The translations under genes were made by a program, and so were the position numbers. From the NCBI GenBank assembly GCA_951406725.2, contig OX597835.1, positions 36,580,001 to 36,644,000 of the forward strand: 64,000 bases of DNA. The letters run 5' to 3'. This document shows positions 14,285 through 57,481 of the stretch, in pieces; the first letter of the stretch is position 1, and each line of letters opens with the position of its first letter. Below the pieces are notes generated by a model. It searched no databases, had not been told where the DNA came from, and was given only the letters and a program-made list of their open reading frames with translations. The DNA is from Octopus vulgaris. Taxonomy: Eukaryota.

Positions 14285-17101
14285 TGTTTCTTTATTAGCC
14301 ACACAGGGCTGCACACAGACGGGACAAATTACAAGGTAGAGCTTTTCTTTTGGGGATAAAAAAAGGGGGGTTGGTTTTCGATCAAAAGGGATCGTAAAAG
14401 GAAAGAAAGAGGAAAGCAAAAGAAAAAAAAAGGGGGGGGTAAAAATAAAAGGAAAAAGAAAAAATCGATCAATAGAGATCGTTATCAAGAAATGTCAATA
14501 TAAAGTGTAAAGGGGAAGACAGGTGAGGTTTACCCGTGGAAAGAAAAGCCTACGGAAAAGACCACGGTAACCACGGTCAATGAAGTCACATGTTACATTT
14601 TTTTTTACAAATAAGTAACTCTCTGTATTAAATTTTTACCGTTCATGGGATCATGGTCAAGGTGGCTTCGTCATTCATACGTGCCATCCTTGATACATTC
14701 ACCCATCTTTTTTGAAAACATTCGCTAGACAAAACTTGCCTCTCTACTCTCACTTTCCTTTTCAAGTGATACTTGAGGAAGTTGAGAGATTGACCAGAGA
14801 GGAAAGTGTTTGTGTCCAATCCTTTCAGACGCGTCCACCAGATACATTCTTTCGCCATAGCCACAAGGATGATAAAAATAGCTCTTCCATCCCGTTTGAA
14901 GGAAGGAGGCATAACAATATTGACGATAGACTCAGCTGATAAACCGACACGTCCCACACGTGACAGCAGTCGTTCGACATAAGTCCACAGGTCGGAAATT
15001 GTTGGACACTGCACGATTGCGTGCGGGACGGTTTCGTCGCTCTAACCGCATCTCGGGCAGGTTGGCCCCGTGTTTCTCGAGCCATGCCTATAGAGTTTAT
15101 CCTGAACGGGTAGCGCTTCTCGGTAGCACTGCCAGGCCAGGGATCTCTGGAAGTTGTCCATAGGTCCCGGCCCGAAAGTCGTCTCAAAAAGGCGGGTCAG
15201 GTATTCCTCGTCGACGCCCAGGTTCGCCCCAAGATCGTCGTCGTACCTCCCCTCCACTAATCCCCTATAGAATGCTTTGGTTGTGTTGAAGTCACTCAAG
15301 GTCGACCCGGGACGGCATAGTTGCTTGAGAACAACGCGACACTCGCGGTGCCATTCGCCCTTCCTCGGCCTCTTTTTGATCCGCGACTGCATTTCGGTCA
15401 TGGAGACGAGCTGCGGGAAGGCGTGCCTCACAAACGGCGACCACACCTGTTCACCGTCGTCTACATAGAGCCGGAGATGTCGCAGTCTCAGCGCGTGTCT
15501 GCGCATCATCAACTACGGCATGCCCAGCCCTCCTTTTAACGGGTGTTGACAGCAAATGGATCGCCTGACCATCGGGACGCATCCTTTTCACAAGATGCGG
15601 AAGAGAATGCGTTCTAGTTTGGTGTTGGTAGGGTCGGGACAAGGTACGACGGTCAGGCGGTAGTAGATGATGACGCGATGTACGTGTTCGCCACCTCCGC
15701 CCGACCTTTTAGGGACAGTTTCCTCTCGGCCCATTCCGGGCGAGAGTGACCACCCTACTCATTATCTCGTTCCAGTTCTTCTCCATTTGGAGGTCCGGAC
15801 CGAACCAGACCCCGAGCAACTCGACGGGCCGTCCGTCCAGCGTCCCACAACGGAGGCGCTAGTGGACGGCATGGGCTTGCTTCTCCAGGTGCCGAGCCGA
15901 GCCGAGCCGAGCCGCAAGCCCACTGACCTTTCCCGGTTGATTTTCGCTCCTGTCACCGCTTCGTAGTCTTTCAGTGTCTCGCCGACCAGCTCAGTGTGCT
16001 CGTGGCTTGACACTTTGACGGTGACGTCGTCCGCGTATGCAGACACGCTCGTCCCGCATCCCAGTTCTCGCGGGATGCCCCTCAGAGTTGCCAGCTTCCG
16101 CAGTAGTGGCTCGAGAGTCAATACGTATAGAAGCGACGAGAGGGGGCATCCCTGACGGACCGAACGTGCAATGTCGAAAGGTCTCGATAGATGTCCATTT
16201 ACGCGAATTACCGAACGGATACCTTTGTACAAAGTAGCTATCCAGCCGCGGAAAACGGGACCGAAACCAGCCGCTCTCAGGACTGCCTCCAAGTATCGAT
16301 GGTCCACCCTATCGAAAGCTTTCGATTGATCTAAATTGATCAGGGCCCCACACGTGCCAGGTTCCTTAACTACTCTGTCTATGATGTAGCGCATCATGGA
16401 TGCTCCGGCCCGGCACGGCGCACGCTTGTGCGTTGTCGACCAGTTTCTCGATGACAAGCGCCAGCCTCTTGGCTAACACCTTTGTCAAAATTTTCATGTC
16501 TGCATTGAGCAGAGTGATTGGTCTAAAGTTATCTATAACGTTCCTCTTGTTTGGATCTTTCTTCAGCAGCGTTTCGGCTCCTCGACTCACAAAACCGGGT
16601 ATGCTCCCGCTTTGCTGCCAGTTGCAGTATACCGCTGCCAAGACGTCTCCAAACAAGTCTGGCATACAATTGTAAAACTCGTAGGGCAGACCATCCAAAC
16701 CCGGCGATTTGTCTCTCGAGCATTCTGCCATTGCGTCCCGCACATCCGCCGCCGTGATGGCACCTTCACAGCACTCTGCCTCTCTTGCCGAGAGTCGTGG
16801 CAGGCTGTGCAGGTAGGCACTGAAGTCCACCCTGCGTTCACGCTCGCCACTCGTCCCGTACAGTCGGGAAAAGTGCCGCTGAAATGCCTCGCACATCTTG
16901 CTGGGCTCGAGCAATTCGCGCCTTTGTTCGTCTACCAGAGACCGAATGGTGGCTTTGTTGCCCTGCTGCGCCTCCACCACCCGGGCCTCTCTCGCGGCTC
17001 CAACACCTTCCATCCTTAGAACACGCATCCTAGCCCTGACAGCACACCCTTCGTGTTTGGCGTTGAGGTGTTGGTCGAGGGCCAACCTCGCCGCTTCTTA
17101 T
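14285..17101 (-). mobile_element. 5'-truncated Tx1-clade (L1 group) LINE with a frameshifted ORF2 RT
   Basis: KSPGLDGLPYEFY, NFRPITLLNADMKIL, LDQSKAFDRVDHRYL, VRQGCPLS, AYADDVTV, C-terminal CPRCG...H knuckle; AATAAA at the 3' end; (TATC)n on both flanks. Confidence 0.88.
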
Positions 17102-18120
17102 TGATAGATAGATAGACAGACAGACAGTGGTGGTGGTGGTAGTGGTGGCGGAGGTGGTGGCGGCGGCGGTGGTGGTGGCGGTGGTGATGGTGGTGGTGGT
17201 GTCGGTGGCGGTGGTGATGTTTGTGGCAGAGTTGAATGTTTCAGTCGAAGTCGCGTCTCGCCTTCACCTTCGAAATGCGGAGTAGATGAAACCATGGCGA
17301 CTGAAGAAGGGGAATTTTCCTTGTGTTGTATGTCCTGTACTCTATTTTTTCGTTGTTTAAGAAAAATGTCCAGTTCCTAGGTTTTGTGTTTATATTTTCG
17401 TTTCTCATTGTGTTCGACGTTTTTTTGGTGTCCTGTACCCATATATGCATGTATATATACATGTAGACGTAGGTACGTACATATATGTATGTATATATGC
17501 ATATGTTTTATTTATTAATTTGTTATTACACGACAGAACGCACGCATCCATTTCTAAGTAAGTTTGTCCGTAGTAGTAGTAGTAGTAGTGGTTGGCTGTG
17601 AAGCTGTCGTCTGGGTTCTTCCAATTTCTTCGTGTGTCGGCGGCGGCGGCGGTGTTGCCGTCCAATGCTCACACCTGCACCTGTGTTGCTTCTCCCCCTC
17701 CTTCCCTCCTTCATGAAGCTGTGGGGAAGGCAGGGTAGGGAAATCAACGTCGTAAGCGTTGTCAAGGAGACCGGCGTTCTTTTCGACAACGACTTCAGGG
17801 CTTGAAGACGCCATGCTCAAAGCAGAAATGGCCAAGAAAGCCGAAAACCATTTTTTACAAAATCAGGAAACACGCCACACAGGGCAGGTTTCCCGTACAA
17901 AGATTTAGTTGAAGAAATCGACCCCAGAACTAATATTTTCTTCAAAGTCTGGTACTTATTCTATCGGTGTCTTTGACGAACCGCTACGTTACGGACACAT
18001 ACATACGCGCGCGCACATACGATGGGCTTATTTGCTTATTTCAGTTTCTGTCGATCAAATCTACCAACAAGGTTTTATGCTATATAGTGTAAGACACTCG
18101 CGCACGCGCATTTGATAATA

Positions 18121-18617
18121 TTGTTTGTTCCTTCTCCAGCCGGTTTCCCGGTTTCCTTGGCGTATAGGTTCCCCACCTGGACGTGACGCCGGTCCGTCGC
18201 AGTTGAGCTGCAAGATGCAGGAGGAAAGAGTGAGAGAAAGTTGTGGCGAAAGAGTCAGCAGAAGTTCGCCATTACTGTAGAGCAGTGCTTTTCAAACTTT
18301 TTGCTGGAGTGGAACCCCAAGGAAACATTCCACTGGCTCGAGGAACCCCTGTGCAGTAATTTAATAGTCTTGTGCACACATATCTGCACAGGAGAATTAA
18401 AAATTACTGCCGATTTTAGCAGTTTTGTAACTTCTTGCGGAACCCCTGGACTGTACTGGCGGAACCCTAAGGTTCCATGGAACTCTGGTTGAAAACCACT
18501 GCTGTGGAGCTTAGGTGTTTCGCTGATAAACACACGCATCGTCTGGTCTGAGATTCGAACCTGCGATCCCTCGACCGCGAGTCCGCTGCTCTAACCACTA
18601 GGCCATGTGCCTCCACA
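18121..18617 (-). mobile_element. tRNA-derived SINE family D (other copies about 8520-8820 and 30405-30706; related 23850-24140 and 62900-63197)
   Basis: Head ggcacatggcctagtggttagagcagcgg...ggttcgaatc with A/B boxes; shared body. Confidence 0.75.
18283..18501 (+). mobile_element. hAT-type MITE
   Basis: TIRs cagtgcttttcaa / ttgaaaaccactg; 8-bp TSD ctgtagag/ctgtggag; second copy at 45285-45485. Confidence 0.8.
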
Positions 18618-19560
18618 CATTAGATAATTATAAACAAGGAAAATAGAATTCAAAGCAAACCTACACAACCGTGTCTCACTCACCAACTTTGTTTCCCAAT
18701 AACCTCAAAAAAAAAAAAAAAAAAAAGTTAATGTTTTTTTAATGAAATTCTCTACAAATTGCTTTCAAAAGGCGTAGATTTCTGTTATAGTGGAATATAA
18801 TGTGAAAACAAAAGGCGGCGAGCTGGCAGAAACGTTAGCACGCCGGGCGAAATGCGTTGCCGTATTTCATCTGCCGTGACGTTCTGAGTTCAAATTCCGC
18901 CGAGGTCGACTTTGCCTTTCATCCTTTCGGGGTCGATAACTTTAGTACCAGTTACGCACTGGGGTCGATAACTTTAGTACCAGTTACGCACTGGGGTCGA
19001 TAACTTTAGTACCAGTTACGCACTGGGGTCGCTGTAATCGACTTAATGCGTTTGTTTGTCCTTGTTTGTCCCTTCTGTGTTTAGCCCTTTGTGTAAAGAA
19101 ATATATAGTAAAGAAATATATAATGTCAAAACAAAAAAAAACCCCATAAAACAAAGACAAAAAACATTGGTGGGTGCTTCCCAACCACATGGTTATGAGT
19201 TCAGGCCCACCGTGGGACACATTAGGTAAGTGCTTTCTACTATAGCCCCCGGCCAACCAAAGCCTTATGGGTGGATTTGGTAGATGGAAACTGAAAAATG
19301 TCCATCATGTATGTGTGTGTGTGTGTGTATGTGTTTGTCCCCCTCACCATCGCTTGACAACCGATGCTTGTGTGTTTATCTCCCTATAAGCAAAAGACAC
19401 CGACAGAATAAGTACTAGGCTTTTAAGGCAGTACTCCAGTATGGCCGCAGTCAAATGACTGAAACAAGTAAAAGAATACTATATGGCGTTCCTGTAGAAT
19501 AACGTCGCAAATTATCTAGAGGTGCGCACACATACTGACATGCATCGGGGTTTTTTTTTT

Positions 19561-19958
19561 TGATCTTCTCGGTTTGAACGGCAGTTTTTTCTAGCGGTGT
19601 CATATGAAATTGTCACCCATAATTATGACCCTAGTATCGATCTATTGCATTTCAATCTGTTTTAGGGTTAGAGGTGGGGGAAGGGTATCTTTTTTCTTCA
19701 CAAATGTAAATAAACCCAATCTGTTTCTTAAACGAGAGACATATTCATACGGCACAAAATGTTTTCACCTCAATAGACGTCACTGATTGGTTGAAATTGC
19801 AGAAAAAAACATCAAATATCTTACAAACCATAGAATTTTCTCAATAAAGCCAAGAGAAAAAGATGTTTTATAAACACATTCTACCAGTATACGAAGTTTA
19901 AAAGTGTTTAGTTACGTGGAAATTATTTTAAAAACTGCCGTTCAAACCGAAAAGATCC
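19561..19958. mobile_element. Merlin-like MITE copy in poly(T)
   Basis: Same TIRs and body as 9909-10332. Confidence 0.78.
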
Positions 19959-20369
19959 TTTTTTTTTTTAATTTCAAGTTCCATTTCGTAGATGTGTATC
20001 AGGATGAATGGGCACCCACCAATTTTTATTCCCCCCCCCCCCGCTAAATTCCAATATAATCGCAATCTACACAGTCCGAAAGGTATTGAAGGAATTTTCA
20101 TTAAAATATATGCATTTTTCTGAAAGTTATGAGGAAACAAAGTCGTGTAAGGGGGTAAACTTGTACAGATATGCATATTCAAATAGATGTGATGGTCGTG
20201 GCTGGAGCGACTTTGGTCATAACTCTGTGCTGATTTCGGTCTAAACAATATTAGTAATAACAGTAAGCATTGGCAATCATCTTCCTTCTTGTGAAATTCC
20301 CTCTTTAATCATGAGAATTTCCACAGCTAAAGTACAAGAGAAGGCTTGTAAAAGATTTGTCATCAATCA

Positions 20370-21048: not shown

Positions 21049-22067
21049 GTAAGCATACGCGTATTTATATATATCTGTCTATATGTACCTCATAAAGCTT
21101 TGATGTCGGGCACCTGCTGCTACTATTTGCTGATGTTAATCATGATTATGATGATGATGGTTTCGGTTTCGCTTCGCTTCGGTTCCAGTTCTATGGATGA
21201 ATGATCACAGTTGGCTTTTTCTTGGTTCTTGTGCTAAAACCTGGGGCGGGGACGACGAATCAGTTGCAATCTGTCCTCTTGCTACCCGTTTCAGCCAAAC
21301 AACAACATAAACAATATACTTACACAACGATACACACACACACACATATGTATATATACATTATATATATTTCTTTACTACCCACAAGGGGCTAAACATA
21401 GAGGGGACAAACAAGGACAGACATAAGTATTAAGTCGATTACATCGACTCCAGTGCGAAACTGGTACTTTATTTATCGACCCCGAAAGGATGAAATGCAA
21501 AGTCGACCTCGGCAGATATGTATATATACCTATTTCTTTACTACCCACAAGGGGCTAAACATAGAGGGAACAAACAAGGACAGGACAAAGGGATTAAGTC
21601 GATTACATCGACTCCAGTACCTAACTGGTACTTAATTTATCGACCCCGAAAGGATGAAAAGCATAATCAACATCGGCGGATATATATATATATGTACCTT
21701 ATATAATGAGTGTCTACTTTTGATATGTGTGCGTGTACCCCTACCTATCACTTTTCTTTTAATTCTACCATCACCACCTCCAGAGCTATTTTACTAATAA
21801 TTTTACGATTTCTGTTGCATAGTACCACCACTATACACCTGTAGATGTCTTAGAATTATATTGATTAATACTAACTGTTCCTTTTAAATTTTTATTCTGT
21901 AATTAACTTGCTATACGTCTAAACCACTTCAAAGTTGTTATTAAAACACCTTGTGTTGTCTTCACGCATCCTGTTTCTGTTATTTCGTTTTTTAACTTGT
22001 AAATCCTGGATCCAAATGGCTTTGATTTTTCTCATTATCTATCCTTGTTTCGTTTACATATTGATTG

Positions 22068-22161
<94 letters not shown>

Positions 22162-22880: not shown

Positions 22881-23278
22881 CTATTTCTTTACTACCCACT
22901 AGGGGCTAAACACAGAGAGGACAAACAAAGACAGACAAACGGATTAAGTCGATTATATCGACCCCAGTGCGTAAGTGGTACTTATTTAATCGACCCCGAA
23001 AGGATGAAAGGCAAAGTCGACCTCGGCGGAATTTGAACTCGGAACGTAGCGGCAGACGAAATACCTATTTCTTTACTACCCACAAGGGGCTAAACACAGA
23101 GGGGACAAACGGATTAAGTCGATTATATCGACCCCAGTGCGTAACTGGTACTTATTTAATCGACCCCGAAAGGATGAAAGGCAAAGTCGACCTCGGCGGA
23201 ATTTGAACTCAGAACGTAACAGCAGACGAAATACTGCTAAGCATTTCGCCCGGCGTGCTAACGATTCTGCCAGCTCGC
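22881..23278 (-). mobile_element. SINE family B, head plus two bodies
   Basis: Junction at 23064/23065 is identical to those at 9009 and 9199. Confidence 0.82.
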
Positions 23279-23614
23279 TGCATACCGTTATATACACAGT
23301 TGTTTTTCTGTTTGTTTGATACTACTCTTTATCATCATCATTTAACGTCTGCCTTCCATGCTGGCATGGGTTGGACGGCGTGGCAGGAGCTGGTAAGCCT
23401 GAGGACTGCTGTATGCCTTTCCTATCGCCAGTCACATTACAGGGTGGACTGGGTGGTTTTTACATGGCACCAGCACCGGCGAGGTGACCAAATAACTTGC
23501 AAGGCAAAGACCCTTTGAGAGGTGGAGTGGTATTGAAAGGGGTGGCTTTGTACTAGGTGATGAGGGGTTAGAGTATGACAAGCTGACAGAAACAAGTGAC
23601 TTGCGGTAGAAATA

Positions 23615-25454: not shown

Positions 25455-25856
25455 GGCGGCGAGCTGGCAGAAACGTTAGCACGCCGGGCGAAATGCGTAG
25501 CCGTATTTCTTCTGCCGTTACGTTGTGAGTTCAAATTCCGCCGAGGTCGACTTTGCCTTTCATCCTTTCGGCGTCGATAGCTTAAGTACCAGTTGCGCAC
25601 TGGGGTCGATATAATCGACTTAATCCGTTTGTCCTCTCTGTGTTTAGCCCCTTGTGGGTAGTAAAGAAATAGGTATTTCGTCTGCCATGACGTTCTGAGT
25701 TCAAATTCCGCCGCGGTCGACTTTGCCTTTCCTCCTTTCGGTGTCGATAAATTAAGTACCAGTTACGCACTGGGGTCAATGTAATCGACTTAATACCTAT
25801 GTCTGTCCTTGTTTGTCCCCTCTTTGTTTAGCCCCTTGTGGGCAATAAAGAAATAG
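25455..25856 (+). mobile_element. SINE family B, head plus two bodies, 15-bp TSD
   Basis: TSD gtattgtgtaaatca (25438-25452 and 25857-25871); internal junction at 25672/25673. Confidence 0.85.
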
Positions 25857-27044: not shown

Positions 27045-29225
27045 GTAAGTATATTGTTAAATTTAACAACAACAACAGTAGTAGCAGCAGTAGTAGTAGT
27101 AGTAGCAGCAGCAGTAGTAGTAGCAGCAGTAGCAGCAGCAGTAGTAGTAGTTGTTGTAGTAGCAGCAGTAGTAATAGTAGTAGTAGTAATAGTAGTAGTA
27201 GTAGTAGTAGTAGAAGTTGCAGCAGCAGTAGTAGTAGTAGTAGTAGTAGTAGTAGCAGCAGTGTTGCCGGGTCATAGTGCTAGTCATCTTATTACCCTTT
27301 TTACATGCTGGCATGGGTTGGACAGTTTGACAAAAACAGATGAGCCTGAGGGCTCTGTCAGGTTCTGTATTGGCCTTGGCATAGATTCCCTTCCTAATGC
27401 CAACTTCTTTACAGAGTGTACTGGGTGCCTTTTTTTGCAAGGCATCAGCACTTGTGGGGGTCGCCAAGTACCCGGAAGATAAGACATGGGTAAAATCTAT
27501 GTTTCCTGTATATTTTGCTTCAGTGCCACTCCAATATTGTTACTACAACACGCACTACACCACCCTGCACCACTGTAAGTTCAACCACATATACTGTAGT
27601 TACAACCACACCACCATAGTCAGCACCAAATCACTACAGTCCGCTCCACACCTCTCTAATGACTACCACACATTCTACAGCTACAACCTAACCTCTGTAG
27701 TCACCAGCACATACTATAGTCATCTCCACTTCACCATAGTCACCTCCATACTACTAGAATCACATTTACTATAGTCAAGTGCCACACCTAGCAGTTGAGG
27801 GAACCTGTGGAAGAGGTAGACCCAAGAAGACATTTGACATTTGAACATTGGGCCTCACTGAGGCAATGACTAGTGACTGGGACCTTTGGAAATATGCTGT
27901 GCTTGAGAAGACTCGGCAAGCGCAAGTGAGACCATAACTTTGTGGCCTATGCCAGGGGTGTAACCAGTCCACTTATGCATACCTTTCCTTCATTGGACAC
28001 TAAACTCTGCTTGCGAAGGCAAGTGAAATCGAAATCAAATTTAATGACTGGCATTTGTGCTAGTGAAATGCTAAGAGTACCATACAAGTGAGATCGTTGC
28101 CAGAGCAACAAGCTAGCCTCCGTGCCGATGGCATGTAAAAAACACCATTTGGGAGTGATCATTACCTGTGTTGTGCAACTATGGGCACTTGTGCTGGTGG
28201 CATGTGGAAAAAAACATTCGAGCGAGATTGTTGCCAGTGCCGCTGGACTGGCTCCTGTACAGGTGGCACATAAAAAGCACCATTTGAGCATGGCCGTTAC
28301 CAGTACCGCCTGACTGGCCCTCGTGCCTGTGGCATGTAAAAGCATCCACTACATTCTCGGAGTGGTTGGCGTTAGGAAGGGCATCCAGCTGTAGAAACTC
28401 TGCCAGATCAGATTGAAGTCTGGCGCAGCCATCTGGTTCGTCAGACCTCAGTCAAATCATCCAACCCATGCTAGCATGGAAAGCAGACGTTAAATGATGA
28501 CGATGATGATGATGACTGCTAATAAGAGAGTGAAGACATGTGGCCTTGCTATTAGAGTGTAACATGCATGATTGCAAGATTGTGGTTTCAATTCTCGGAC
28601 CAGGCGGTACATTGTGTTCTTGAAGAAAACATTTAGAAAGATTGTGCAACTTTGAGGAAGCAAGCTATATCTGTATCACTATGCTGTGCATTTAGGCCAC
28701 AATTACAGCCTTTTCATTTGCTGAGTCAGCCTAGTGTCTCATCATCATCATCATCATCATCGTTTAGCGTCCGCTTTCCATGCTAGCATGGGTTGGACGG
28801 TTCAACTGGGATCTGGGAAGCCAGAAGGCTGCACCAGGCCCAGTCTGATCTGGCTATGTTTCTACGGCTGGATGCCCTTCCTAACGCCAACCAATCAGTG
28901 AGTGTAGTGGGTGCTTTTTATGTGCCACCGGCACAGGTGTCTGACATTATTTATTTGAAAAGTAAGGTGAAAAAGAAAAAAGTTAGAAGTAAGTTAGTGC
29001 TCTTGAAATAGGTGTCCCCCTCCAAAAAACAGACACACCCTGCAGGTATGTTCAGTATGATAGAATACAATTCTATGTTAACAAATTAATGCAAATAAAG
29101 GAGGCTAACTGACCAGATCACTGGAACATTATGGTTCCATTAACAGTTCCACTCATGGTGATGGCCATGTGATTCTCGGATTACATATCTTATACTATTT
29201 AGTGTGTGTGTGTCAATATGTGTGT

Positions 29226-31839: not shown

Positions 31840-32536
31840 GTATTGGTTCTCAGTACATCTTTTCTTTCTTTCCTTCCTTCCTTCCTTTCTTTCTTTCACA
31901 TAAAAAACACCCACTACACTCATGGAGTGGTTGTCATTAGGAAGGGCATCCAGCTGTAGAAACTCTGCCAGATCAGACTGGAGCCTGGTGCAGCCTCCAT
32001 GGCTTACAAGACCCTGGTCGAACTGTCCAACCCATGCTAGCATGGAAAACGGACGTTAAATGATGATGATATGTCAATTTAGTCAAAAATATACTGGACC
32101 TGATTTAAAGATGGAATGTCATGGTTGGATTCCTTTGATCCTATGTCTCCTCAGTTACTGGCTCAGGGAAAGATTTTTTTGGTGGGGGCAGATGAGAGAG
32201 GGAGGGTAGCTTCTGGGGGTCTTTGGTTGCTTGCCTGCTTTATTGAGTGAATGAGCATAGTTAACCCTTCATTATTTAATCCGTTAGCATTTAAACTGGT
32301 GATGTCCAGCCCGAATATTCTACCTGTTTTATGTTCAAACTGGTCAGATCCTGTCTCCCATGCTGACCCTACATTGTAAAAATGAAGTTACGTCATCAAA
32401 ATCTCAATGCATGATTAATTTTTAAAATGTGTATAAATAAGCATTACCTTTGACAGTGTAATCTGAATGCTAAATTTTACTGTTTCACGTTCAAACCACC
32501 CGGATTTGGCACCCTTACACCAGCCCTACAATGTCA

Positions 32537-33644: not shown

Positions 33645-33975
33645 TCTTAGCAACATTCTTTGAAAAGGTTAGCAACATTTGCCCCCTCCCCCGTTAGCAA
33701 CATTTGTTGTCCCCTTGTAAGCAGCATTTGTTCTCCCCCTTGTTAGCAACATTTGTTGCTCCCCCTGTTAGCAACATTTGTTGTCCCCTTGTTAGCAACA
33801 TTTGTTTCCCCTTGTTAGCAACATTTGTTGTCCTCCTTGTTAGCAGCATTTGTTGTCCCCTTGTTAGCAACATTTCTTGTTCCCTTGTTAGCAACATTTG
33901 TTTTTCCCTTGTTAGCAACATTTGTTGGCAACTTGTTAGCAACATTTGTCAGCCACTTGTTAGCAACATTTGTTA
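33645..33975. repeat. Minisatellite, 24-27 bp unit (ttgttagcaacatttgttgtcccc)
   Basis: About 12 tandem units. Confidence 0.9.
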
Positions 33976-34758: not shown

Positions 34759-35689
34759 GTAAAAAAAATAACTTCCTCTCTGTATTTGCTCTTTTTTCTT
34801 TTTTTTTGTTTTCTCTGTTTTTATTACTTAACAGTATGACTATCTGCCACCCCATCCCCACCCCTCTCTTTTACTGTTTTTCTTCAAATCGATGACAGTG
34901 CTCCAGCATGGCCTTACCTGTGATTATTTATACTATTAATAAAAAGGGCGGCGAGATGGCAGAACCGTTAGCGCACCAGGCAAAATGCTTAGTGGTATTT
35001 CGTCTACCGTTACGTTCTGAGTTCGAATTCCGCCGAGGTTGACTTTGCCTTTCATCCTTTCGGGGTCGATGAATAAAGTACCAGTTTCGCACTGGGGTCG
35101 ATGTAATCGACTTAATCCGTTTGTCTGTCCTTGTTTATCCCCTCTACGTTTAGCCCCTTGTGGGTAGTAAAGAAATATATTTATACTACTAATAAACTTA
35201 AAAAAACAAGAATTTCTGAAAACCATTTTGCCTGCCAAAGGGAAGGTTGGGTTTTGCAGGTTCCAAGACTGTCCACTAATAATACTTGTCATCTTTCCAT
35301 TTTTAATGCAGCGTTTTATGAAATGCATCAGAAGGGATGCAGTGCATGTGTCTGTCTGTCTGTCTGTCTTGCCCGCTCTCTCTTTATATATATCTCTTTG
35401 TCCTGCTCTTTCTCTGTCTGTCTCTATCTGTCCATCTGTTTATATATGTAAAGATGTGATTCATGGAAGTCTGGTTAACAACCATCACATGTTGTTAAGC
35501 CATGGAAGTGCATGCCTATATGTGCATGCATTCATTCATGCATGCACTCACACCAGGCTTTTGACCCGGCACCATAATAAGACTCTTGCCTGTATATGCA
35601 TGTCATCATCATCATCATCATTTAATGTCCATCTTCCATGTAAATATGTATATACATATGAAATAATGGAAGGAGCCAGACCAAGATTT

Positions 35690-38623: not shown

Positions 38624-38664
38624 TTAATGAAAACGAAGGATGGATTTTAGTAGGAAGTTGTTTA

Positions 38665-39066
38665 GGCGCAGGAGTGGCTGTGTGGTAAGTAGCTTGTTTA
38701 CCAACCACATGGTTCTGAGTTCAGTCCCATTGCATGGCACCTTGGGCAAGTGTCTTCTACTATAGCCTCGGGCCAACCAAAGCCTTGTGAATGGATTTGG
38801 TAGACGGAAACTGAAAGAAGCTTGTTGTATATATGTATATATATGTGTGCGTGTATGTTTGTGTTTGTCCCCCTAGCATTGCTTGACAACCGATACTGGT
38901 GTGTTTATGTCCCCGTCAGTTAGCGGTTCTGCAAAAGAGACCGATAGAATAAGTACTGGGCTTACAAAGAATAAGTCCCGGGGTCGATTTGCTCAATTAA
39001 AGGCGGTGCTCCAGCATGGCCGCAGTCAACTGACTGAAACAAGTAAAAGAGTAAAAGAGTAAAGAG
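38665..39066 (+). mobile_element. Full-length SINE family A (further copies 26363-26640 +, 44087-44500 +, 49425-49815 -)
   Basis: Head ggcgcaggagtggctgtgtggtaag...ttcagtccc; tail (gagtaaaa)n. Confidence 0.88.
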
Positions 39067-39165: not shown

Positions 39166-41148
39166 TGGTTGCTGGAGTTGGGCTCAGCATATATACATTG
39201 GTTGCTGAGGTGTAAGGAGTAGGTTTTATGGAGCAATGATTGATGGGGCAGATTGGTTGCTGGGGTTGGGCTCAGCATATATACATTGGTTGCTGGGGTT
39301 AGGCTCAGCATATATACATTGGTTGCTGGGGTTAGGCTCAGCATATATACATTGGTTGCTGGGGTTGGGCTCAGCATATATACATTGGTTGCTGGGGTTG
39401 GGCTCATGGGCTCAGCATATATACATTGGTTGCTGGGGTTGGGCTCAGCATATATACATTGGTTGCTGGGGTTGGGCTCAGCATATACATTGGTTGCTGG
39501 GGTTGGGCTCTTGGGCTCAGCATATATACATTGGTTGCTGGGGTTAGGCTCAGCATATATACATTGGTTGCTGGGGTTGGGCTCAGCATATACATTGGTT
39601 GCTGGGGTTGGGCTCTTGGGCTCAGCATATATACATTGGTTGCTGGGGTTGGGCTCAGCATATATACATTGGTTGCTGGGGTTGGGCTCAGCATATACAT
39701 TGGTTGCTGGGGTTGGGCTCTTGGGCTCAGCATATATACATTGGTTGCTGGGGTTGGGCTCATGGGCTCAGCATATATACATTGGTTGCTGGGGTTGGGC
39801 TCAGCATATATACACTGGTTGTTGGGGTTGGGCTCTTGGGCTCAGCATATATACATTGGTTGTTGGGGTTGGGTTCAGCATATATACATTGATTGCTGGG
39901 GTTGGACTCAGCATATATACATCGGTTGTTGGGGTTGGGCTCTTGGGCTCAGCATATATACATTGGTTGCTGGGGTTGGGCTCTTGGGCTCAGCATATAT
40001 ACATTGATTGCTGGGGTTGGGCTCTTGGGCTCAGCATATATACATTGGTTGCTGGAGTTGGGCTCAGCATATATACATTGGTTGCTGAGGTTGGGCTCAG
40101 CATATATACATTGGTTGCTGGGGTCGGACTCAGCATATATACATTGATTGCTGGGGTTGGACTCAGCATATATACATCGGTTGTTGGGGTTGGGCTCAGC
40201 ATATATACATTGGTTGCTGGGGTTGGGCTCTTGGGCTCAGCATATATACATTGGTTGTTGGGGTTGGGTTCAGCATATATACATTGATTGCTGGGGTTGG
40301 GTTCAGCATATATACATTGGTTGCTGGGATCAGGCTCAGCATATATACATTGGTTACTGGGGTCAGACTCAGCATATATACATTGGTTACTGGGGTTGGG
40401 CTCAGCATATATACATTGGTTGCTGGGGTTGGGCTCAGCATATATACATTGGTTGCTGGGGTTGGGCTCAGCATATATACATTGGTTGCTGGGGTTGGGC
40501 TCAGCATATATACATTGGTTGCTGGGATCAGGATCAGCATATATACATTGGTTGCTGGAGTTGGGCTCAGCATATATATATATTGGTTGCTGGGGTTGGG
40601 CTCTTGGGCTCAGCATATATACATTGGTTGCTGGGGTTGGGCTCAGCATATATACATTGGTTTCTGGGGTTGGGTTCAGCATATATACATTGGTTGCTGG
40701 GGTTGGGTTCAGCATATATACATTGGTTGCTGGGGTTGGGCTCAGCATATATACATTGGTTGCTGGGATCAGGATCAGCATATATACATTGGTTGCTGGA
40801 GTTGGGCTCAGCATATATACATTGGTTGCTGGGGTTGGGCTCTTGGGCTCAGCATATATACATTGGTTGCTGGGGTTGGGCTCAGCATATATACATTGGT
40901 TGATGGGGTCGGGCTCAGCATATATACATTGGTTGCAGGAGTTGGGCTCAGCATATATACATTGGTTGATGGGGTCGGGCTCAGCATATATACATTGGTT
41001 GCTGGGGTTGGGTTCAGCATATATACATTGGTTGCTGGGGTTGGGCTCAGCATATATACATTGGTTGCTGGGGTTGGGTTCAGCATATATACATTGGTTG
41101 CTGGGGTCGGGCTCAGCATATATACATTGGTTGCTGGGGTTGGGCTCA
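39166..41148. repeat. 33-bp minisatellite array, about 2 kb (ttggttgctggggttgggctcagcatatataca)
   Basis: Tandem units with 41-bp (ttgggctc duplication) and 31-bp variants. Confidence 0.96.
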
Positions 41149-41261
41149 GGTATATTCTCCTCCCTGCATATATATATATTGTAATGCCTACCATTTATCA
41201 TTCAATTCTGATTGCACCATTATGCAAATTAGATAGACCAGCTTAGTTCTGTTTATGCTCG

Positions 41262-42643: not shown

Positions 42644-45284
42644 ATATTTCTGAAGGCGTTCTTGGAAGTTGGTCTCCACTCTCTCCAGCATTGCTCTGTT
42701 GATTTGGGCAACTTCAAGTGAATGGCTTCCTTCAAATCAGCCAGTGTATGGGGCTTATGTGCATACACACGTACCTTGAGATTTCCCCACAAGAAATAAT
42801 TACACATGGAGAAATCAGAGGACTGAGGGGACCAAGGAATGTCAGCTAATGTTGCGATCACCAAAGAGAGAGCAAAGAACGTCCATTGATGCTCTCACTG
42901 TATGGGCCATCACTCCATCCTGCCCTAACCACACACATCGAATAGGCATACGTTTCTGTCGTAATTCAGGCACAAAAAAGTTACTTATCATCTTGATGTA
43001 ATGTTCGGAGTTCATAGTAACAGCATTTCCATTATTTTTGTCTGGTTTCCAAAGAAATGTGCGGTTTGCATTATCATGTTGGAAAACAACACCCTTCCTG
43101 TTGGCCAATTCTGGACGTTTCTCTTGAATTGCTTTTAACTCATCCAGTTATGTGCAGTATTTCTCAGAATTAATTGTCTGGTTATTTGGGAAAAGCTCAT
43201 AGTACAGAATTCCTTTCCAATCCTACCAGACACAAAGCAAGACTTTTTTAGGGTGAAGACCCGTTTTTGGGGTGGCTAAGGGTGGCTCATGTCACTTACT
43301 CCAGGATCACTTTCTCTGAACATTTCGGTAGATAATCCATTTCTCATCACCTGTCACAAGTAAGGACCAATGACAACAGCTTTTTCAGCAGCACACCAGA
43401 CCTTCACTTTTGGTCTGTGCAGTGGTCTTTCATTCAGTTCTCTCAGATTTTCAAGAGCCTGATAATGACAGTTCTGTTGATTCACCATGCCATTGAGATG
43501 AAAATGAGCTTCATCGCTCATTAACAAAACGAAGTTGTTATTTGCCTCAAAATTCCATCTGACATGTGAAGTTAAGCCGCTGTGCAAAATATGCCTTACC
43601 GATTGATTACTGATGCCAAATTTAGTGGAATGCCTCTGAGCGGAGCTATTTGGACTTCGTATCAAAGCTTATCTGATGTGTTCTACATTTTCCAGGATCC
43701 ATACCCTTCATGGCACCCCCACCAGTCTCCTATTCATTAGTGTATCTCATGTAGGAAGTGCATTTACCCAACATAAGATTGTGTTACAGGTGGGAACAGC
43801 TCGATTTTGGTGAATGTGGCACCGAAACTCATGCTGAACTGCTGTGACAGACTCGTTATTCTTCATGTAACTGTCATAGGCAAACATGCAATGCTCTATC
43901 GTCCACAGCACCATGGCTTCACCTGACAAGAAAAAAATATAAGACACCACAGACCGAATGGTACCTGTCGGACATGTGTCCATCCTACTGGGGCTGAGTA
44001 ATAACCATTTCAAAAACATCTGTCCTCTCTGCCCCCACCTCCTGTACTATCGAAACAAAATTTAAACAAATATATTTACATCCTACAGGCGTAGGAGTGG
44101 CTGTGTGGTAAGTAGCTTGCTTACGAACCACATGGTTCCGGGTTCAGTCCCACTGCGTGGCACCTTCGGCAAGTGTCTTCTATTATAGCCTCAGGCTGAC
44201 CAAAGCCTTGAGAGTGGATTTGGTAGACGGAAACTGAAAGAAGCCCGTCGTATATATGTATATATTTATATGTATATGTGTATATGTTTGTGTGTCTGTG
44301 TTTGTCCCCCCAACATTGCTTGACAACCGATGCTGATGTGTTTACGTCCCCGTTACTTAGCGGTTCGGTAAAAGAGTCCTATAGAATGAGTACTAGGCTT
44401 ACAAAGAATAAGTCTTGTGGTCGACTTGCTCGACTAAAGGCGGTGCTCCAGCATGGCCACAGTCAAATGACCGAAACAAGTAAAAGAATAAAAGAAAGAA
44501 TAGAAAATCCACTTACACACTTAAATGTATAAATATGTGCACACAATCGCACGTGCACTCACACAAAAGCACGTACACAAACACATATAAACGTAAGATG
44601 TTAGAAGACAACAGATAGGATATTAGGACAATAATTACAAATATACTGTTAAATATTAAACAGATTCAACAAATTCATGTTATAATTATTTCAAGAAACT
44701 TATAAACTATTAAAAAAAAATCCACACCAAAAGATTACTCAAGACACACACACACAAATACAAACTAATTTCACCCTCCTTAATATTCCTCACAATCTTC
44801 TTTGAGAACAATAAGTTCAATAGAAAAACCAAACCCTTACCCTAGGCTGTTTCGCTTTTCCAATTGACCATTCCTCATTTTCAACTTTGTTTTTTTTTAC
44901 TCACCCATCTTCCTCTCTCTAACTTTCAACCTTTTATTTCTCAAAATTTTATCCTTTACTCCAAAGTAATTCTTCTATAGACACCAGGCCTGAAATTTCG
45001 TGGAAGGGCATCGGTCAGTTACATTGGTCCCAGGTGCTCAACTGGTTCTTTGGTGGAATTTGAACTCAGAATGTAAAGCTGGAAAAAATACAGCTAAGCA
45101 ATTTTCCAGCACTTTAATGAGGATTCTGCCAGCTTGCTACCTTTTTTACTCCAAAATAATAAAATAGAAATATTATTTCCCTCTTTCTTATAGATTTCTC
45201 TTCACAAGTCTAAATAAGTATCTTAACACTTGTTCCTTGAAATGAAGCTGTTGCCATTTTTCTGTATAATATCTTACATTAGAA

Positions 45285-49356: not shown

Positions 49357-50442
49357 TATATAATATATATATATATATATACATATATATATCATCATCA
49401 TCATTGTCGTCATCGTTTTTACTTATATTTTACTTGTTTCAGTCATTTTACTGTGGCCATGCTGGAGCACCAACTTTAGTTGAACAAATCGACCCCACGA
49501 CTTATTTTTTGTAAGCCTAATACTTATTCTATCGGTCTCTTTTGCCAAACAGCTAGGTTATGGGGACGTAAACACACCAGCATTGGTTGTCAAGCGATGT
49601 TGGAGGAACAAACACACTCACACAAACACACACATGCATATATATATATATACGACAGGCTTCTTTCAGTTTCCGTCTACCAAATCCACTCAGACGGCTT
49701 TGGTCGGCCCAAGGTTATAGTAGAAGACACTTGCCCAAGGTGCCATGCAGTGGGATTGTACCTGAAACCATGTGGTTCGTAAGCAAGCTACTTACCACAC
49801 AGCCACTCCTGCGCCTATACTTATCATTTAACATCTGTTTTTCCATGCTCTCATGGGTTGGAAAATAGACTTCAAACAATGATGATGATGGTGGTATATC
49901 CTAAAGGCCGTAAGCCTGAAGAATTGTTAATGCAGCGGACAAATCATGTAATGGCATTTCATCGGGCTTTTTACATTCTGTGTTCAAATGCAGCCAAGGT
50001 TACCTCTGCCTCTCATCCGTTCAGGGATCAATAAAATAAGTGCCAGTTTGAGCGCAACGGGGCCAAAACAGTTGACTTCCCAAACATCTCCAAACTGCTG
50101 GCCTTGTGCCAAAAGCTGTTACAAGTATTTATAAGTCGTTGTTGCATAAGTTAAGCTGCAATATATACACACTGCATGAAAGTTATAACTTACCTCAAGA
50201 TGCTGCAAAAGAAGCAGAAATCTGTTTTTTTTTTTACAAGATGTTATGTAAATAAACGTTAGAAATTAATAAATGAACGTTGTTGTTGTTTAATGTTTGT
50301 TGAATGAATTAATATGAACCCATCATAAAATTGAAAACCATGTGTATGCACATATGTATGTATATATATATATATCCATGTGTGTTCATTTGTATATGTG
50401 TCTATGTGTAAATGTGTGTGTATGTATGTATATGTATGTATG

Positions 50443-50488
<46 letters not shown>

Positions 50489-50918: not shown

Positions 50919-50961
<43 letters not shown>

Positions 50962-52197: not shown

Positions 52198-52531
52198 CTG
52201 TATGGGTAGCAGGGCTTAAATACTCTGCTCTTATGTGTGAGACAGCTATACACTTTAAGATCATATATTTGAATTGCCAACTGCCAATGGCTTGAAGTTT
52301 ATCAACCCTTTAGCATTTAAACTGGTCACATGGGGCCAAAATATTTCGTTTTATATTGAAACTGTGTGTATGGGTAGCAGGGCTTAAATACTCTACCCTT
52401 ATGTGTGAGACAGCTATACACTTTAAGATCATATATTTGAATTGCCAACTGCCAATGGCTTGAAGTTTATCAACTCTTTAGCATTTAAACTGGTCACATG
52501 GGGCCAAAATATTTCGTTTTATATTGAAACT
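52198..52531. repeat. Tandem duplication of about 170 bp
   Basis: tgtatgggtagcagggcttaaatactct...ttttatattgaaact occurs twice. Confidence 0.85.
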
Positions 52532-52699
52532 TGCTAGATCTGACATTTTGCAACTATCTGACATCTATCCTACGATATTGTTTTACAAATAAACAATTAC
52601 ATAATCAAAATCTTGAAGTTATGAGATAAAGCATGATTAATTCAAAACAATGTGAATAAATAAGCATTACATTTGACATGGGAATCTGGATGCTAAAAG

Positions 52700-53640
52700 A
52701 TAGAAATTGTGTACCTCTGGTGACAGCAGTATGTAGTTCATTTTTCCTGTTAACAGACACTGCAGTTGGTATAGTATGTGTAGTCTCTTGCAGTGACAGG
52801 GTTAGCAATTGCGTGTTCCAGATAAGCAAGGAAGGGCCATATCAATGATACTCCATTTGATGTTGGATAAGTCATTCTGATGGTCATGGAGCCTCTAGAC
52901 GAAGTGAGATCAAGAGGTTGAGTTTTCCTTGTTCCTGTACTTGAAGGAGTGCATGTGCTGTTTATATCTTTCCTTAAAATCATTAGCTGTCATGCCTGTG
53001 TAATGTTTTGTGATGCTATCTTATGGTACAAGAGTGTATCTATAGACTACACCTTTTGAGAGGCAAGTTATTCCCTGTGGGCAGCTGGTAGAAATTCAAA
53101 AGTTACAGGTTGCGGTGTAGATTGGAAGCTGTGTAGGTGTTTGTGGCATGTGATGAGTAAAGTGATATTGTCTAAACAGGAATAACTGACTTTAACATTG
53201 TGGGGACTGAAGGATTTATAATACCTATGGGTTCTTGGTAAATGTTTTTTTAATTAGTGTTAAGAAGCTCCTGGTTATGTTAGTTTCTAGGTTGTATGGA
53301 GGATCGAACCAGTTTATTTTTGTTTCCAACTCTCTTCAGGTTCAGGGTTTGGGTGATGTACTTCATATATATATATATATATCAGCAAATCCACTCCTTG
53401 CTAATGTCTCATTATAGTAGGGTGCAGTCAAGTTGGAGATTTTTCTGTTTGCTGATAGATTAGAGATTCTCTTCTTATGCTTGTAAATAGGTTTCTAATT
53501 ACAGTTGTAGGGTGGTTGGAGTTTCCATGGATATAAACAATTTTCTCATTGAGTTTTATATAAGAGTAGTACTTGCATGTCCACAAGTTTAGACTGGTAA
53601 GAGTGATAAGGGAGTGTGTAAACTAAGAGAGACCATGATT
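52700..53640 (-). pseudogene. Decayed Penelope-like element ORF (RT thumb, linker and GIY-YIG endonuclease)
   Basis: YIHGNSNHP, RISNLS..PYYNETLARSGF, NVKVSYSCLDNI, CP.G.TCLSKGVVYR...HYTGMTANDFKERYKQH..SF, IKWSII, NRKNEL; many stops and frameshifts. Confidence 0.8.
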
Positions 53641-53715
53641 GCTACATGTTTGTTATTGACAGGGAGTTAAAGAGAAAACAACATGAACAGAATTATGGGA
53701 AAGCAGTAAAGATTT

Positions 53716-54091
53716 ATATTTCATTTTGGGATTTGGTTTGCAAGATCCATTACGTGAGTTCGTGTGTTGAAGCATATTCTGTTGTGTCTGGGGAGAGTCA
53801 TTTTCTTTCTGTGCCTTATAATTTAACACACACATCGGTAAAATTTCCACTTTTTTTTCTTATTTTTATTTTCCTAAAATTTTCATTGCGTCTTGCAACC
53901 TTTTCAATAGTTTTGACTCTGTCCTTTATTTACACTGCTGTTATTTACTTGCAAACTATTGAAAAGGTTGCAAGACGCAACGAAAATTTTTGGAAAATAA
54001 AAATAAGAAAAAAAAGTGGAAATTTTACCGGTGAGTGTGTTATATAGTATAAGGCACAAAAAGAAAATGACTCTCCCCAGACACAACACAA
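53716..54091 (-). mobile_element. Hairpin-plus-tail element with 9-bp TSD
   Basis: About 135 bp arms (53780-53913 and 53953-54088), tail 53716-53779, flanking direct repeat taaagattt. Confidence 0.72.
53956..53993 (+). ncRNA. Minimal hammerhead-like motif, U3-A8 variant (mirror copy 53874-53910, - strand)
   Basis: cta-TTGAAAA-g-gttgc aagac gcaac-GAAA-attt...; perfect 5-bp stem II; stem I is only 3 bp (cta/tag in the mirror arm). Confidence 0.45.
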
Positions 54092-54388
54092 TAAAGATTT
54101 GTTGTGGTAAAAGAGAATGGATGATGGAGTGCAACAGGGATTGTGAAGGTGAGGTCCATAGATGCCGACTTGAAATTATAAGGTGGTGAGAGATAATTGT
54201 GACTAGTGGTAGAGGGTGACAAACAAGGAGTACTGAACTGGGATGTTTAATGCCATCCCTCACTACACAGGCATCATGATGGAAGGGAGAAGGGGTTTGC
54301 ATGATGGAGGGATGGTGGGAAAGAAGTATAATAATGACAATAGGTAATGGTTGAAGGATTGAATATAGCTGCTGTCACTTGTTATATA

Positions 54389-54551
54389 CTGTATTTTAAT
54401 ATGTATAAGGAACCCTTTTTTTTGTCAAAAATTAGGTTTGAAAAAATATGGGAGTTTCTTTTACATGGATAGTATTATTCCCTTAGAAAACCTTTTTTCC
54501 AAATTTTAAGCTCCCAAAATTAGGGGGTTCCTTATACATATTAGAATACAG
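54389..54551. mobile_element. pogo/Tc1-type MITE
   Basis: TA-ctgtattttaatatgtataaggaaccc ... gggttccttatacatattagaatacag-TA. Confidence 0.7.
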
Positions 54552-54592
54552 TACATGGCATGGTACAGAGAAGAGAATAATGAATAGGGTTT

Positions 54593-54623
<31 letters not shown>

Positions 54624-54905
54624 CCATATATATATCGTGATCACATGACTGACCAGGCTATCAGATTTTGTTACTCATCATTGATCACAATGCGCTGTTG
54701 CATTGTTACAGCCTTCAAAAGATGGCCACCCCGCTGACTAGGCAAGCAAGCTAACATTCCTACATGATCGAAAGGGGATATTAAAGCAATGTGGAATGAA
54801 GTGTTTTGCACAAGAACACAAAACTGCTCAGCCTGGAATTCGAACCCATGATCTAGTGATCATGAATGCAACACTCTTAACCACCGGGCTACGTGCCTAT
54901 GTGTA

Positions 54906-54952
<47 letters not shown>

Positions 54953-57250
54953 AATTATTAATTTTATTAGTATTGTTATTGATTAGCAGAAGTTACTGAG
55001 TGACTCATGGGCCAACAGTTTCTTGCAGAGCCAATGCTCAAAACTTTTGTCCCTTGAGTAACTCTGTCAGTTCGGCCAATTAATAATAAAATCTAATATT
55101 TAGAGTTGCATTTTCCTGTTTGTATTACCAAACTTATATACATGTGTGTGTGTGTGTATGTATGTATATATATAATCAAAAATAAGCAACAAGAATGGAT
55201 CCGGTAATTTAGTACAATTGTTTCATACTATAACATTTTATTAAAAGCTGTAAATATATATATATATTTATATATATATATATATATATACATGCGTCTG
55301 TGCATACATATATATATTAGAAGTGACACCTTCACTAATTGATACTATGAGTTCTACATTTCCAATCTTCAAAAGATATGAATTTCAGAGTAACAATTTG
55401 GGAAGTTTTTTAGCTTCTAATAAATACAACTCAACATTCTGTATTGAGTACTCTTCTTGTTTGGACCTTTTTTTTTTGCTAACATACATGAATACACAGA
55501 CACACACATGTACAACATCACCGACACACACGTGCACTGTCACACAAATACACACACACACACTTACACATGTACACCCTCACTCATACACATACGTATA
55601 CTGCATGCGACATATTATTCTCTTTGTTTCTGCTGGGGTAATGTGTCTTTGACTAACAATAAGCATCATGGCTGCATCGCAACCGTGTTTGTCTTACTAA
55701 ACTCTGCCTATGATAGCATTTAATCGCTTCTGCTTTTGTTGTATATTTGGCATTTAACCATTTAAAGAACTTCATTTGGAGTGGCAGGTGAGGGCAGGTG
55801 CCTTTGTAGTGTGCTTCTGTATTGTCTGAATAAATTTCTATATTGCAATAACATTGCTCTAGTGTCTTTGTCCAGCTTGTAACTTTTGGCATTGCAATTG
55901 GCGCAAAAAAACATGATGTTGCTATAGCAACACCACTGCATCTATGCTGCGTTATTTGTACATTATTGCTTAGACTTTAACATTCAGCTTGCCATTGCAG
56001 AAAAATATGGCATTACTACAGCATCATCATTGCACCTATATTGTGCTACTTATGCGTCACTATCCAGCTTTTGATTTTCAGCTTTCTCATCAGACAAGAT
56101 AATTCAATGTATATAACACACACACACACACACAAAATAAATGCCACATGCAAACACATGGTATATTTATAGAAGAAAGCATGCACATCTAAGTGTCAAA
56201 AGATGACACCACCATGGTTTCATTATTGTACCTCCATCTGACTACTTATGCATTGTTGTTCATTGTTTAGCTTGTAACTTTTGGCTTTGTCATTGCAGAA
56301 AAGCGGCATCAACATGGTATGATTACTATACTTCATGGTACCATTTTTTTTTTATCGTTGCTCAGCTTTTGCAGACAAACCTCTATCATTCTATCTTGAT
56401 GGTATAACCACTGCATTGCGTTGTGTCATTCTATCATTTCTACTTGACATTTAAAGCTAACCCTGTGTCATTTCATTACTGCAGTATTTCCATTCTGTTA
56501 CTTTACTTATCACATCTTTGGATACATATCACAATTCTGGAAGTTTTGTGGTCTTTTTTACAGCTTTATTTCTGCTAAAACCATGACATCACTTCAGTAA
56601 CACCACTGCGTCTTATGCTACAAAATTTCCAAGCCATACTTAGCATAAAAACTGCACTACTTACTTACTCATATGCTGTTGCTATTGTCTCAGAGGTTAT
56701 AAATTTCGCTGTAAACATTTTTGCCATAGGAAAATACACTGTAAAAAAAAAAAAAAATTGTGAAAACAAAAAAGGATCAGCTGTTTTTTGTCTTTAAATG
56801 ACAACTTCATCAACTGACCTATCAAATTAGATAAAGGTAATTTCTTTGAAATAAGTTACCTAGCTTACAGTCCGCTTGTGTGCCTACGTTTTGGTGAAAT
56901 TTCCTGTGGCAAATTTTCCTATGGCAAAAATGTTTACTGCGAATTTTCTGGATATGTATCTTGGAGACCACAAAATATCCAACATTGGTGAATGATTGTC
57001 ACACCACAAACAGCAGAAACAAGAGGACGACACGGAAGAAGCAGAAGATGACATCTTTATTCATGTGTGTAATGCTTTTCTGGACATTTTAAAATATTTT
57101 TTTGGTTTTCCTTTTGTATATAGGATGTTAATATCAACTATTTTATGGCTATTTTTTGGTCGTAATTGTTGTCATTTAGCGCCGTGATTAAGCAGATCTA
57201 TGGTAAAATGTATTCCAAGTATTTTTTTTACGTTTCTGATATACTGTCAG

Positions 57251-57481
57251 GGCGGCGAGCTGGCAGAAACATTAGCACGCCAGGCGAAATGTGTAACCGT
57301 ATTTTGTCTGCCATTACGTTCTGAGTTCAAATTCCGCCGAGGTCGACTTTGCCTTTCATCCTTTCGGGGTTGATTAAATAAGTACCAGTTACGCACTGGG
57401 GTCGATATAATCGACTTAATCCGTTTGTCTGTCCTTGTTTGTCCTCTCTGTGTTTAGCCCCTTGTGGGTAGTAAAGAAATA
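57251..57481 (+). mobile_element. Full-length SINE family B (others 18813-19110 +, 34947-35176 +, 21370-21680 -)
   Basis: TSD gatatactgtca; Nin/Deu-like core; Tx1-like 3' tail. Confidence 0.85.

Follow-up and report, generated by a model that had tools for sequence, protein, structure and literature searches.

The window analysed here, a stretch of 64,000 nucleotides (nt) of Octopus vulgaris DNA on contig OX597835.1, contains an abundant family of short interspersed elements (SINEs), called SINE B in what follows, and one decayed copy of a high-copy family of long interspersed elements (LINEs) of the L1 group, and both elements end in nearly identical stretches of 42 nt. The best explanation is that an L1-group LINE lineage, likely of the Tx1 clade and probably a sister family of the copy in the window, donated the tail and mobilised SINE B, a reading that we consider probable. 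Sharing of the 3' tail is the rule among SINE/LINE pairs. Published sources are cited below by PMC number for the part of their text that was accessible.

The LINE end (14287-14328) and the reverse complement of one SINE B tail (57438-57479) form an ungapped alignment with 34 of 42 positions identical, as a preliminary description of this DNA had reported, and the other SINE tails of the window match as well: 11 tails are present at seven loci, scoring 29-35 of 42 against the LINE end. The best is located at 23068-23109 (35/42), and the two lowest-scoring ones contain indels. Outside the SINE B tails the top score in the window against the LINE end is 25/42. With the SINE tail as query, no score exceeds 24/42 among some 128,000 42-mers on both strands, SINE tails and LINE end excluded, and among 5,000 dinucleotide-shuffled versions of the LINE tail the highest score against the whole SINE is 27. 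When the last 414 nt of the LINE are compared with the repeat-masked window, the sole matches are SINE B tails (nine besides the self-match). The homology gains five bases, to 14336, if one 3-nt gap is allowed; beyond this point the 3' untranslated region (UTR) of the LINE has no sequence alignable with the SINE and holds no SINE body. Both stretches are, as had been claimed, the extreme 3' ends of their elements. In the LINE, a (TATC)n array follows directly, and SINE B copies stop 1-3 nt past the shared stretch, where a target-site duplication (TSD) begins. The terminal 42 nt are retained to the final base in all 11 SINE B tails. The LINE tail carries AATAAA and most SINE B copies have AGTAAA at the same place, as would follow if the LINE form came first. 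One SINE tail variant (25812-25853) has AATAAA as in the LINE, together with a long stem (z -3.1), and may be nearer to the ancestral tail. With 42 nt at 81-83% identity, the match falls inside the range of accepted bivalve SINE/LINE pairs, which share 35-61 nt at 72-95% (PMC11481361). A search for the tail sequence patterns in viral, genome and metagenome contigs gave no match. A second SINE of the window, family A, was rejected as a sharer of the tail, having short local matches only (scores 17-26).

Does this terminus belong to the LINE itself? Contigs from four public DNA runs (4 of the 24 listed runs, with four organism labels) were aligned to 14266-15165, giving 34,109, 23,472, 7,110 and 9,224 aligned contigs per run. 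Their similarity to the window copy is mostly 90-99%. In the LINE-only bin adjoining the tail (14326-14355) the summed contig depth, which is not a copy number, amounts to 0.56-0.75 of that in the tail bin and is of the order of the ORF2 bins. Three of 32 listed pieces bridge the tail and the UTR (X7 records 17 and 18; X8 record 25). They come from two other organisms, carry 13-16 differing letters each and all reach the GATA flank, with X7 record 18 continuing into a different flank. Only one tail variant, at 14320, occurs among the 40 variants listed (66 more exist), and it differs from the SINE letter; among the 24 loose ends listed (1,955 more exist), none lies at the tail/UTR border. Since divergent contigs bridge tail and UTR, the tail forms part of the family and is no scrap of SINE beside one copy: the shared tail is the LINE family's own 3' end. 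Among the joints listed (503 more rows exist), all 12 with intervening letters lead from the LINE interior into GATA repeat, and (GATA)n appears to be the target of the family. From one joint, a LINE copy reduced to ~29 nt of tail can be deduced inside a GATA repeat.

The copy in the window (14287-17097, minus strand) is 5'-truncated and decayed, with no endonuclease domain left; in a tblastn search the protein P0121 aligns to 17094-14652 at 62-65% identity. Its ORF2 remnant (14643-17097, minus strand) comprises reverse transcriptase (RT; PF00078) and a C-terminal zinc-knuckle region, and is interrupted by frame changes near 16390 and at 15840-15750 and by several in-frame stops. RVT_1 is detected in two of its pieces, and the RT remnant, placed earlier at 15762-17085, is found at 15762-17097. 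The ORF2 remnant is followed by a pyrimidine-rich, LINE-specific 3' UTR (14329-14642, minus strand), with no SINE match beyond the few bases already mentioned, and by the terminal 42 nt (14287-14328, minus strand) with their AATAAA motif and a weak predicted hairpin. GATA repeats flank the copy at both ends. At the 3' junction, which reads ATAT into the TATC array, lies a (GATA)n microsatellite (13916-14284, plus strand) that would be the target, or the target plus a terminal repeat; at the 5' junction a GATA/GACA repeat (17101-17126, plus strand) would be the other half of the target, and the TSD is ambiguous within the repeat. No second LINE was detected in the window, tblastn with seven relatives matching this LINE only, and ten other open reading frames of the window have no Pfam match.

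P0121 is 64% identical to the X-bridged ORF2 remnant over 824 columns. It scores 172-174 bits against human L1 ORF2p and 63-88 against R2 proteins, L1 and R2 being the only two groups in the library, and full-length relatives combine PF03372, PF00078 and PF13966 (APE, RT and zf-RVT). By this preference of P0121 for L1 ORF2p and by the domain set of its relatives, the LINE is assigned on protein sequence to the L1 group (L1 plus Tx1). Among named proteins, those of the octopod Argonauta hians are the closest, and the window copy groups with one Argonauta protein and P0121 (97% SH-aLRT) in a tree of 50 rows, taken from 179 after 75% de-replication, which was made by a quick method without labelled Tx1 references and is no clade test. 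Sister families of the LINE are present at 58-64% protein identity. A related L1-group lineage (~40% identity), of which hundreds of ORF2 copies are almost intact, is represented by P0144, P0275 and P0161. Protein-led locus searches for relatives of the LINE found none, and so gave no second LINE 3' end. Among APE-type LINEs, site-specific members are reported in Tx1 and R1 only (PMC6007223). Because of this restriction and of its GATA-repeat junctions, the LINE is likely a Tx1 element, a placement that draws on insertion behaviour. Tx1 elements that target microsatellites have been described, namely Kibi, Koshi and crocodilian Tx1 (PMC4494074), and L1-Tx1, with 13 families, is the sole L1-group class among the recently active LINEs of O. 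vulgaris (PMC13282606). Of the original Tx1 assignment, the L1-group membership and the Tx1-like microsatellite junctions thus hold, and Tx1 itself is the likely but indirect part.

SINE B is ~230 nt long and consists of a head, a central domain, a short pyrimidine-rich linker and the shared tail, and it has no poly(A). It has the marks of a SINE: it is short, non-coding and dispersed, with 5'-truncated copies and TSDs at four loci. Each of its 12 copies matches the majority sequence of the set at 90-97% (mean 94%). In the full-length copy of the preliminary description (57251-57481, plus strand; 12-nt TSD) the head spans 57251-57336 and contains an A-box-like motif and a B-box-like motif that departs from the consensus at one base; the head may derive from a transfer RNA (tRNA), and neither ARAGORN nor Rfam detects a tRNA in SINE B. 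The central domain occupies 57340-57387 and the tail 57438-57479, both on the plus strand. A second full-length copy (34947-35177, plus strand) has a 19-nt TSD with one mismatch. The remaining copies are more complex. A dimer at 25455-25856 (plus strand) is enclosed as a whole by a 15-nt TSD, another at 22881-23281 (minus strand) contains the best-matching tail, and a tandem array at 8940-9432 (minus strand) has two tails and a third, cut unit. Two 5'-truncated copies lie in a TA-rich tract (21359-21680, minus strand), and the copy at 18814-19107 (plus strand), with a 19-nt TSD read by eye, has an internal 32-nt triplication (3.2 units) as well as a 15-nt duplication of its end. The tandem junctions in the two dimers and the array all fall at one internal GTAT site, near base 50 (4 of 4), and the dimers have a common 15-nt deletion in the first unit. 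Such tandems may have arisen either by self-insertion with homology-guided 5' joining or from a dimeric master. Older, more divergent relatives of SINE B (74-84%), which have the UCON3 region and in which no shared tail was detected, are located at 8060-8156, 9509-9615, 9736-9854, 49971-50048 and 45052-45091, and possibly represent an earlier family with another tail.

The central domain had been labelled Nin/Deu, a label that has to be abandoned. The 48 nt at 57340-57387 match three printed UCON3 rows at 33, 36 and 37 positions without gaps, and the majority of the 12 SINE B copies matches five printed rows at 35-38 of 48, all counted by hand (PMC7245038). A 27-nt degenerate UCON3 motif has 11 matches in the window, all in SINE B copies, with none expected. 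The domain begins 4 nt after the B-box-like motif, between head and tail, and by sequence it is UCON3. This arrangement is also that of UCON3_CM, hagfish SINE2-1 to SINE2-10_EBu, SINE2-1_CrH, SINE2-1_NAm and SINE2-15_ADi, in which the 48-nt domain comes right after the B box; the domains of these UCON3 SINEs are 69-79% identical to that of SINE B (ungapped, hand count), whereas the hagfish tails, unlike that of SINE B, are derived from RTE or CR1 or are unassigned (PMC7245038). The Nin domains printed for Lottia and Littorina (PMC4758252) are by eye unlike the SINE B body, and an 11-nt Nin motif has eight two-mismatch matches in the window, against 16 expected, none of them in a SINE B copy. 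The Nin/Deu comparison used Nin, which is part of Deu; the long vertebrate Deu domain lies outside it. A CORE label was rejected by eye against oyster CORE SINEs, and the MetaSINE supplements searched contain no match to the UCON3 motif, a result that is no direct test of the Meta domain. The accessible text of Kojima 2020 lists UCON3 SINEs for Chordata, Nematoda, Cnidaria and Xenacoelomorpha, and not for Mollusca (PMC7245038), and no molluscan UCON3 SINE appears in the literature searched, judged by titles and abstract openings.

How would this SINE have acquired its tail and spread? An ancestral UCON3 SINE may have gained the LINE 3' tail through a template switch or through recombination with LINE RNA. 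ORF2p would then bind the tail of the RNA polymerase III transcript of the SINE, as in established stringent SINE/LINE pairs, and target-primed reverse transcription would insert the SINE at TAT-containing sites, producing TSDs of 12-19 nt. The TSDs measure 12, 15 and 19 nt, with a further 19 nt by eye. They begin with TAT within one base in 4 of 4 cases and with RTAT in 3 of 4, the background being 2.2% per position. They are within or just above the range of the L1 clade (7-18 nt) and partly above that of RTE (7-15 nt) (PMC6007223); the lengths fit the L1 clade slightly better but, with four sites, decide nothing. The ages of the two elements roughly overlap, SINE B copies being 90-97% identical to their majority and the LINE contigs 90-99% to the window copy. 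SINE B probably had a sister family as its direct partner, because the tails differ at 7-8 of 42 positions (17%) and the SINEs lie outside GATA arrays; such a family would have a looser target. The exact GATA-bound family of the window is unlikely to be the direct donor. The initial proposal that a Tx1 family mobilises SINE B therefore stands in part, with the family-own tail, the L1-group membership and the compatible TSDs and ages on its side, and with the window family itself giving way as the immediate source.

Several observations weigh against the partnership of SINE B with a Tx1 lineage. Within either family the copies vary by a few per cent, less than the 7-8/42 by which the tails diverge, and a GATA array adjoins 0 of 11 SINE 3' ends, unlike that of the LINE. 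The TAT at the SINE junctions may belong to the end of the element itself, and at one of four SINE target sites there is a T-stretch near -10 of the kind described for RTE (PMC6007223). In O. vulgaris, RTE, Dong-R4 and CR1 match L1-Tx1 in activity (PMC13282606), and the tail comparison covers the window and the aligned contigs, with RTE, Dong-R4 and CR1 tails outside it. The GATA joints are biased, as only a GATA flank is detectable as a joint. As to the clade, the short RT piece of the window taken by itself ranks R2Bm above L1 (56 against 45 bits, a weak result), and no sequence labelled Tx1 or invertebrate L1 appears among the results of the homologue, cluster and atlas searches. The folding of the tail is equally ambiguous. 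LINE and SINE tails can form the same predicted two-stem hairpin, and 97 of 100 cells pair in the shared model, a figure that reflects sequence conservation only. The inner stem, however, is offset by one base between LINE and SINE, none of the 11 rows, which include a single LINE, shows a compensatory change, and the folding energy is not above that of shuffles in four of five tails tested; the z-scores are -1.16 for the LINE, -0.04 to -0.25 for three SINE copies and -3.12 for one. Because neither energy nor covariation is significant, a structural recognition element in the tail is predicted only.

What else could explain the shared tail? It is possible that the partner of SINE B belongs to another clade, RTE, Dong-R4 or CR1, and that the L1-group family acquired its tail secondarily, from a SINE or from that other LINE, by a template switch, the borrowing being reversed. 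The abundance and recent activity of RTE-BovB, Dong-R4 and CR1 in octopus (PMC13282606, PMC8967140, PMC10294476) and the frequency of tail swaps (PMC5786205) favour this scenario, as do the 17% divergence, the position of the SINEs outside GATA arrays and the single RTE-like T-stretch. It is nevertheless unlikely: the homology ends where a LINE-derived tail should end and the LINE UTR carries no SINE body, SINE B has none of the terminal short repeats of RTE-, CR1- and L2-type SINEs (PMC7245038, PMC6007223), AATAAA in the LINE against AGTAAA in most SINEs is the order expected if the LINE form is older, and the 19-nt TSDs exceed the stated RTE range. Alternatively, the tail could be a relic inherited from a Tx1-like LINE, and SINE B could be copied without strict recognition of it, by a relaxed, L1-like machinery or by any RT. 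In crocodilians, SINEU likely owes its movement to Tx1-Mar, with which it has no tail in common (PMC4494074), so a shared tail is not indispensable to Tx1, and the octopus tail itself folds weakly and without covariation. This second scenario seems improbable to us given that SINE B has no poly(A) tail, that 11 of 11 tails retain the 42 nt right to the end and that 97 of 100 cells pair, though this last through conservation of sequence.

It is very doubtful that the partnership holds with an invertebrate L1-clade lineage outside Tx1. The testing covered L1-group membership only, and the tree has no labelled references, which leaves room for such a lineage. Opposed to it are the GATA-repeat junctions in combination with the restriction of APE-type site specificity to Tx1 and R1 (PMC6007223), the microsatellite-targeting Tx1 elements already described (PMC4494074) and the standing of L1-Tx1 as the sole L1-group class among active O. 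vulgaris LINEs (PMC13282606). Finally, a chance match, or a scrap of SINE beside one LINE copy, as the single LINE copy in the window and the short, partly A/T-rich match could suggest, is largely refuted and scarcely credible, given that the null comparisons reach 24-27 of 42 and that divergent contigs elsewhere join tail and UTR.

A donor of the Tx1 clade would be unusual. The partners in the bivalve pairs are CR1, CR1-Zenon, L2 and Nimb, with no Tx1 in the accessible text (PMC11481361), the printed survey table of SINE/LINE pairs has three L1-clade rows (maize, sorghum and Chlamydomonas) and no Tx1 row (PMC3747384), and Kojima 2018 does not mention Tx1 in the part available (PMC5786205). 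The prior expectation that Tx1 tail partners are uncommon is supported by these three sources. No tail-sharing Tx1 pair was found in the literature searched, which includes few subscription papers and has Repbase, SINEBase and the O. vulgaris library, where such a pair may already be recorded, outside its scope. The nearest parallels are L1-clade pairs: ZmSINE2 and ZmSINE3 with LINE1-1_ZM, and SINEX-3_CR with L1-1_CR, in which a tRNA-type SINE and an L1-clade LINE have ~45-80 terminal bases in common; the maize, sorghum and Chlamydomonas pairs are read as stringent 3'-end recognition (PMC3472496, PMC3747384). These pairs are plant and algal, whereas the octopus pair is animal and likely Tx1, with no poly(A) or poly(T) end and no compensatory hairpin changes. 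Crocodilian SINEU resembles SINE B in being likely mobilised by Tx1, in its case Tx1-Mar, as is proposed here for the octopus family. It differs in that SINEU has small nuclear RNA heads, poly(A) and target sites in common with Tx1, but no shared tail, whereas SINE B shares the tail and not the strict target (PMC4494074). The window LINE resembles Kibi, with its (TC)n target, Koshi, (TTC)n, and the crocodilian Tx1, (TTCC/TTTC)n, in its L1-group RT and in its insertion into a microsatellite (PMC4494074). Its own target, (GATA)n, is unlike theirs, and no GATA-targeting Tx1 is described in the accessible parts of the literature compared.

Octopus SINEs named OK, OR1 and OR2 were reportedly described by Ohshima and Okada in 1994. 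All three are abundant tRNA-type SINEs, and OR1 and OR2 are called CORE-SINEs (PMC4824008, PMC4758252), unlike SINE B, which has no full CORE body. SINE B may be one of OK, OR1 and OR2, or a Repbase entry. No partner LINE for these three is named in the accessible text of the octopus literature compared, and papers on octopus repeats mention SINEs of the tRNA-Core and tRNA-Deu types, with no partners given in the parts available (PMC8967140, PMC10294476, PMC5804259, PMC4824008). SINEs make up 11.6% of the O. vulgaris genome and are mostly unclassified (PMC13282606).

Other repeats are frequent in the window. Family A, a SINE of ~390 nt with a CORE-like body by eye and an internal TA/TG tract, is present at 38659-39050, 44087-44487 and 49428-49820 and in about ten more copies. 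It has a module of 45-60 nt in common with SINE B, composed of the end of the UCON3 domain and the next stretch and distinct from the LINE tail, which may be read as an exchange of modules between the two families. Minisatellites occupy 39252-41149 (33 nt, 55 copies), 33693-33974 (24 nt), 1478-1846 (~92 nt) and 52199-52531 (168 nt), and at least five further unclassified dispersed families have three to seven copies each (8525-8822, 28191-28510, 32266-32474, 9907-10743 and 8200-8509).

Taken at its widest, the proposal is that SINE B, among the dominant SINEs of octopus, is the first animal SINE with a Tx1 tail and the first molluscan UCON3 SINE, that Tx1 reads its RNA stringently, that the machinery of a site-specific lineage has driven a genome-wide SINE burst and that a short TAT match of the RNA end to the target sets the insertion sites, including one within the SINE. 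As a whole this is tentative, falling a little short of an even chance. The UCON3 domain is extended to molluscs, and what is likely a mislabelling as Deu is corrected. If the partnership is true, its presence in an animal would favour the view that stringent recognition is ancestral in the L1 group and became relaxed later, in mammals. For Tx1, whose recognition of RNA is undescribed in the accessible parts of the literature compared, it would also provide a short RNA element open to testing. A site-specific LINE that drives a dispersed SINE would allow the roles of protein and RNA in target choice to be separated, and a likely engine would be named for part of the SINE expansion in octopus.

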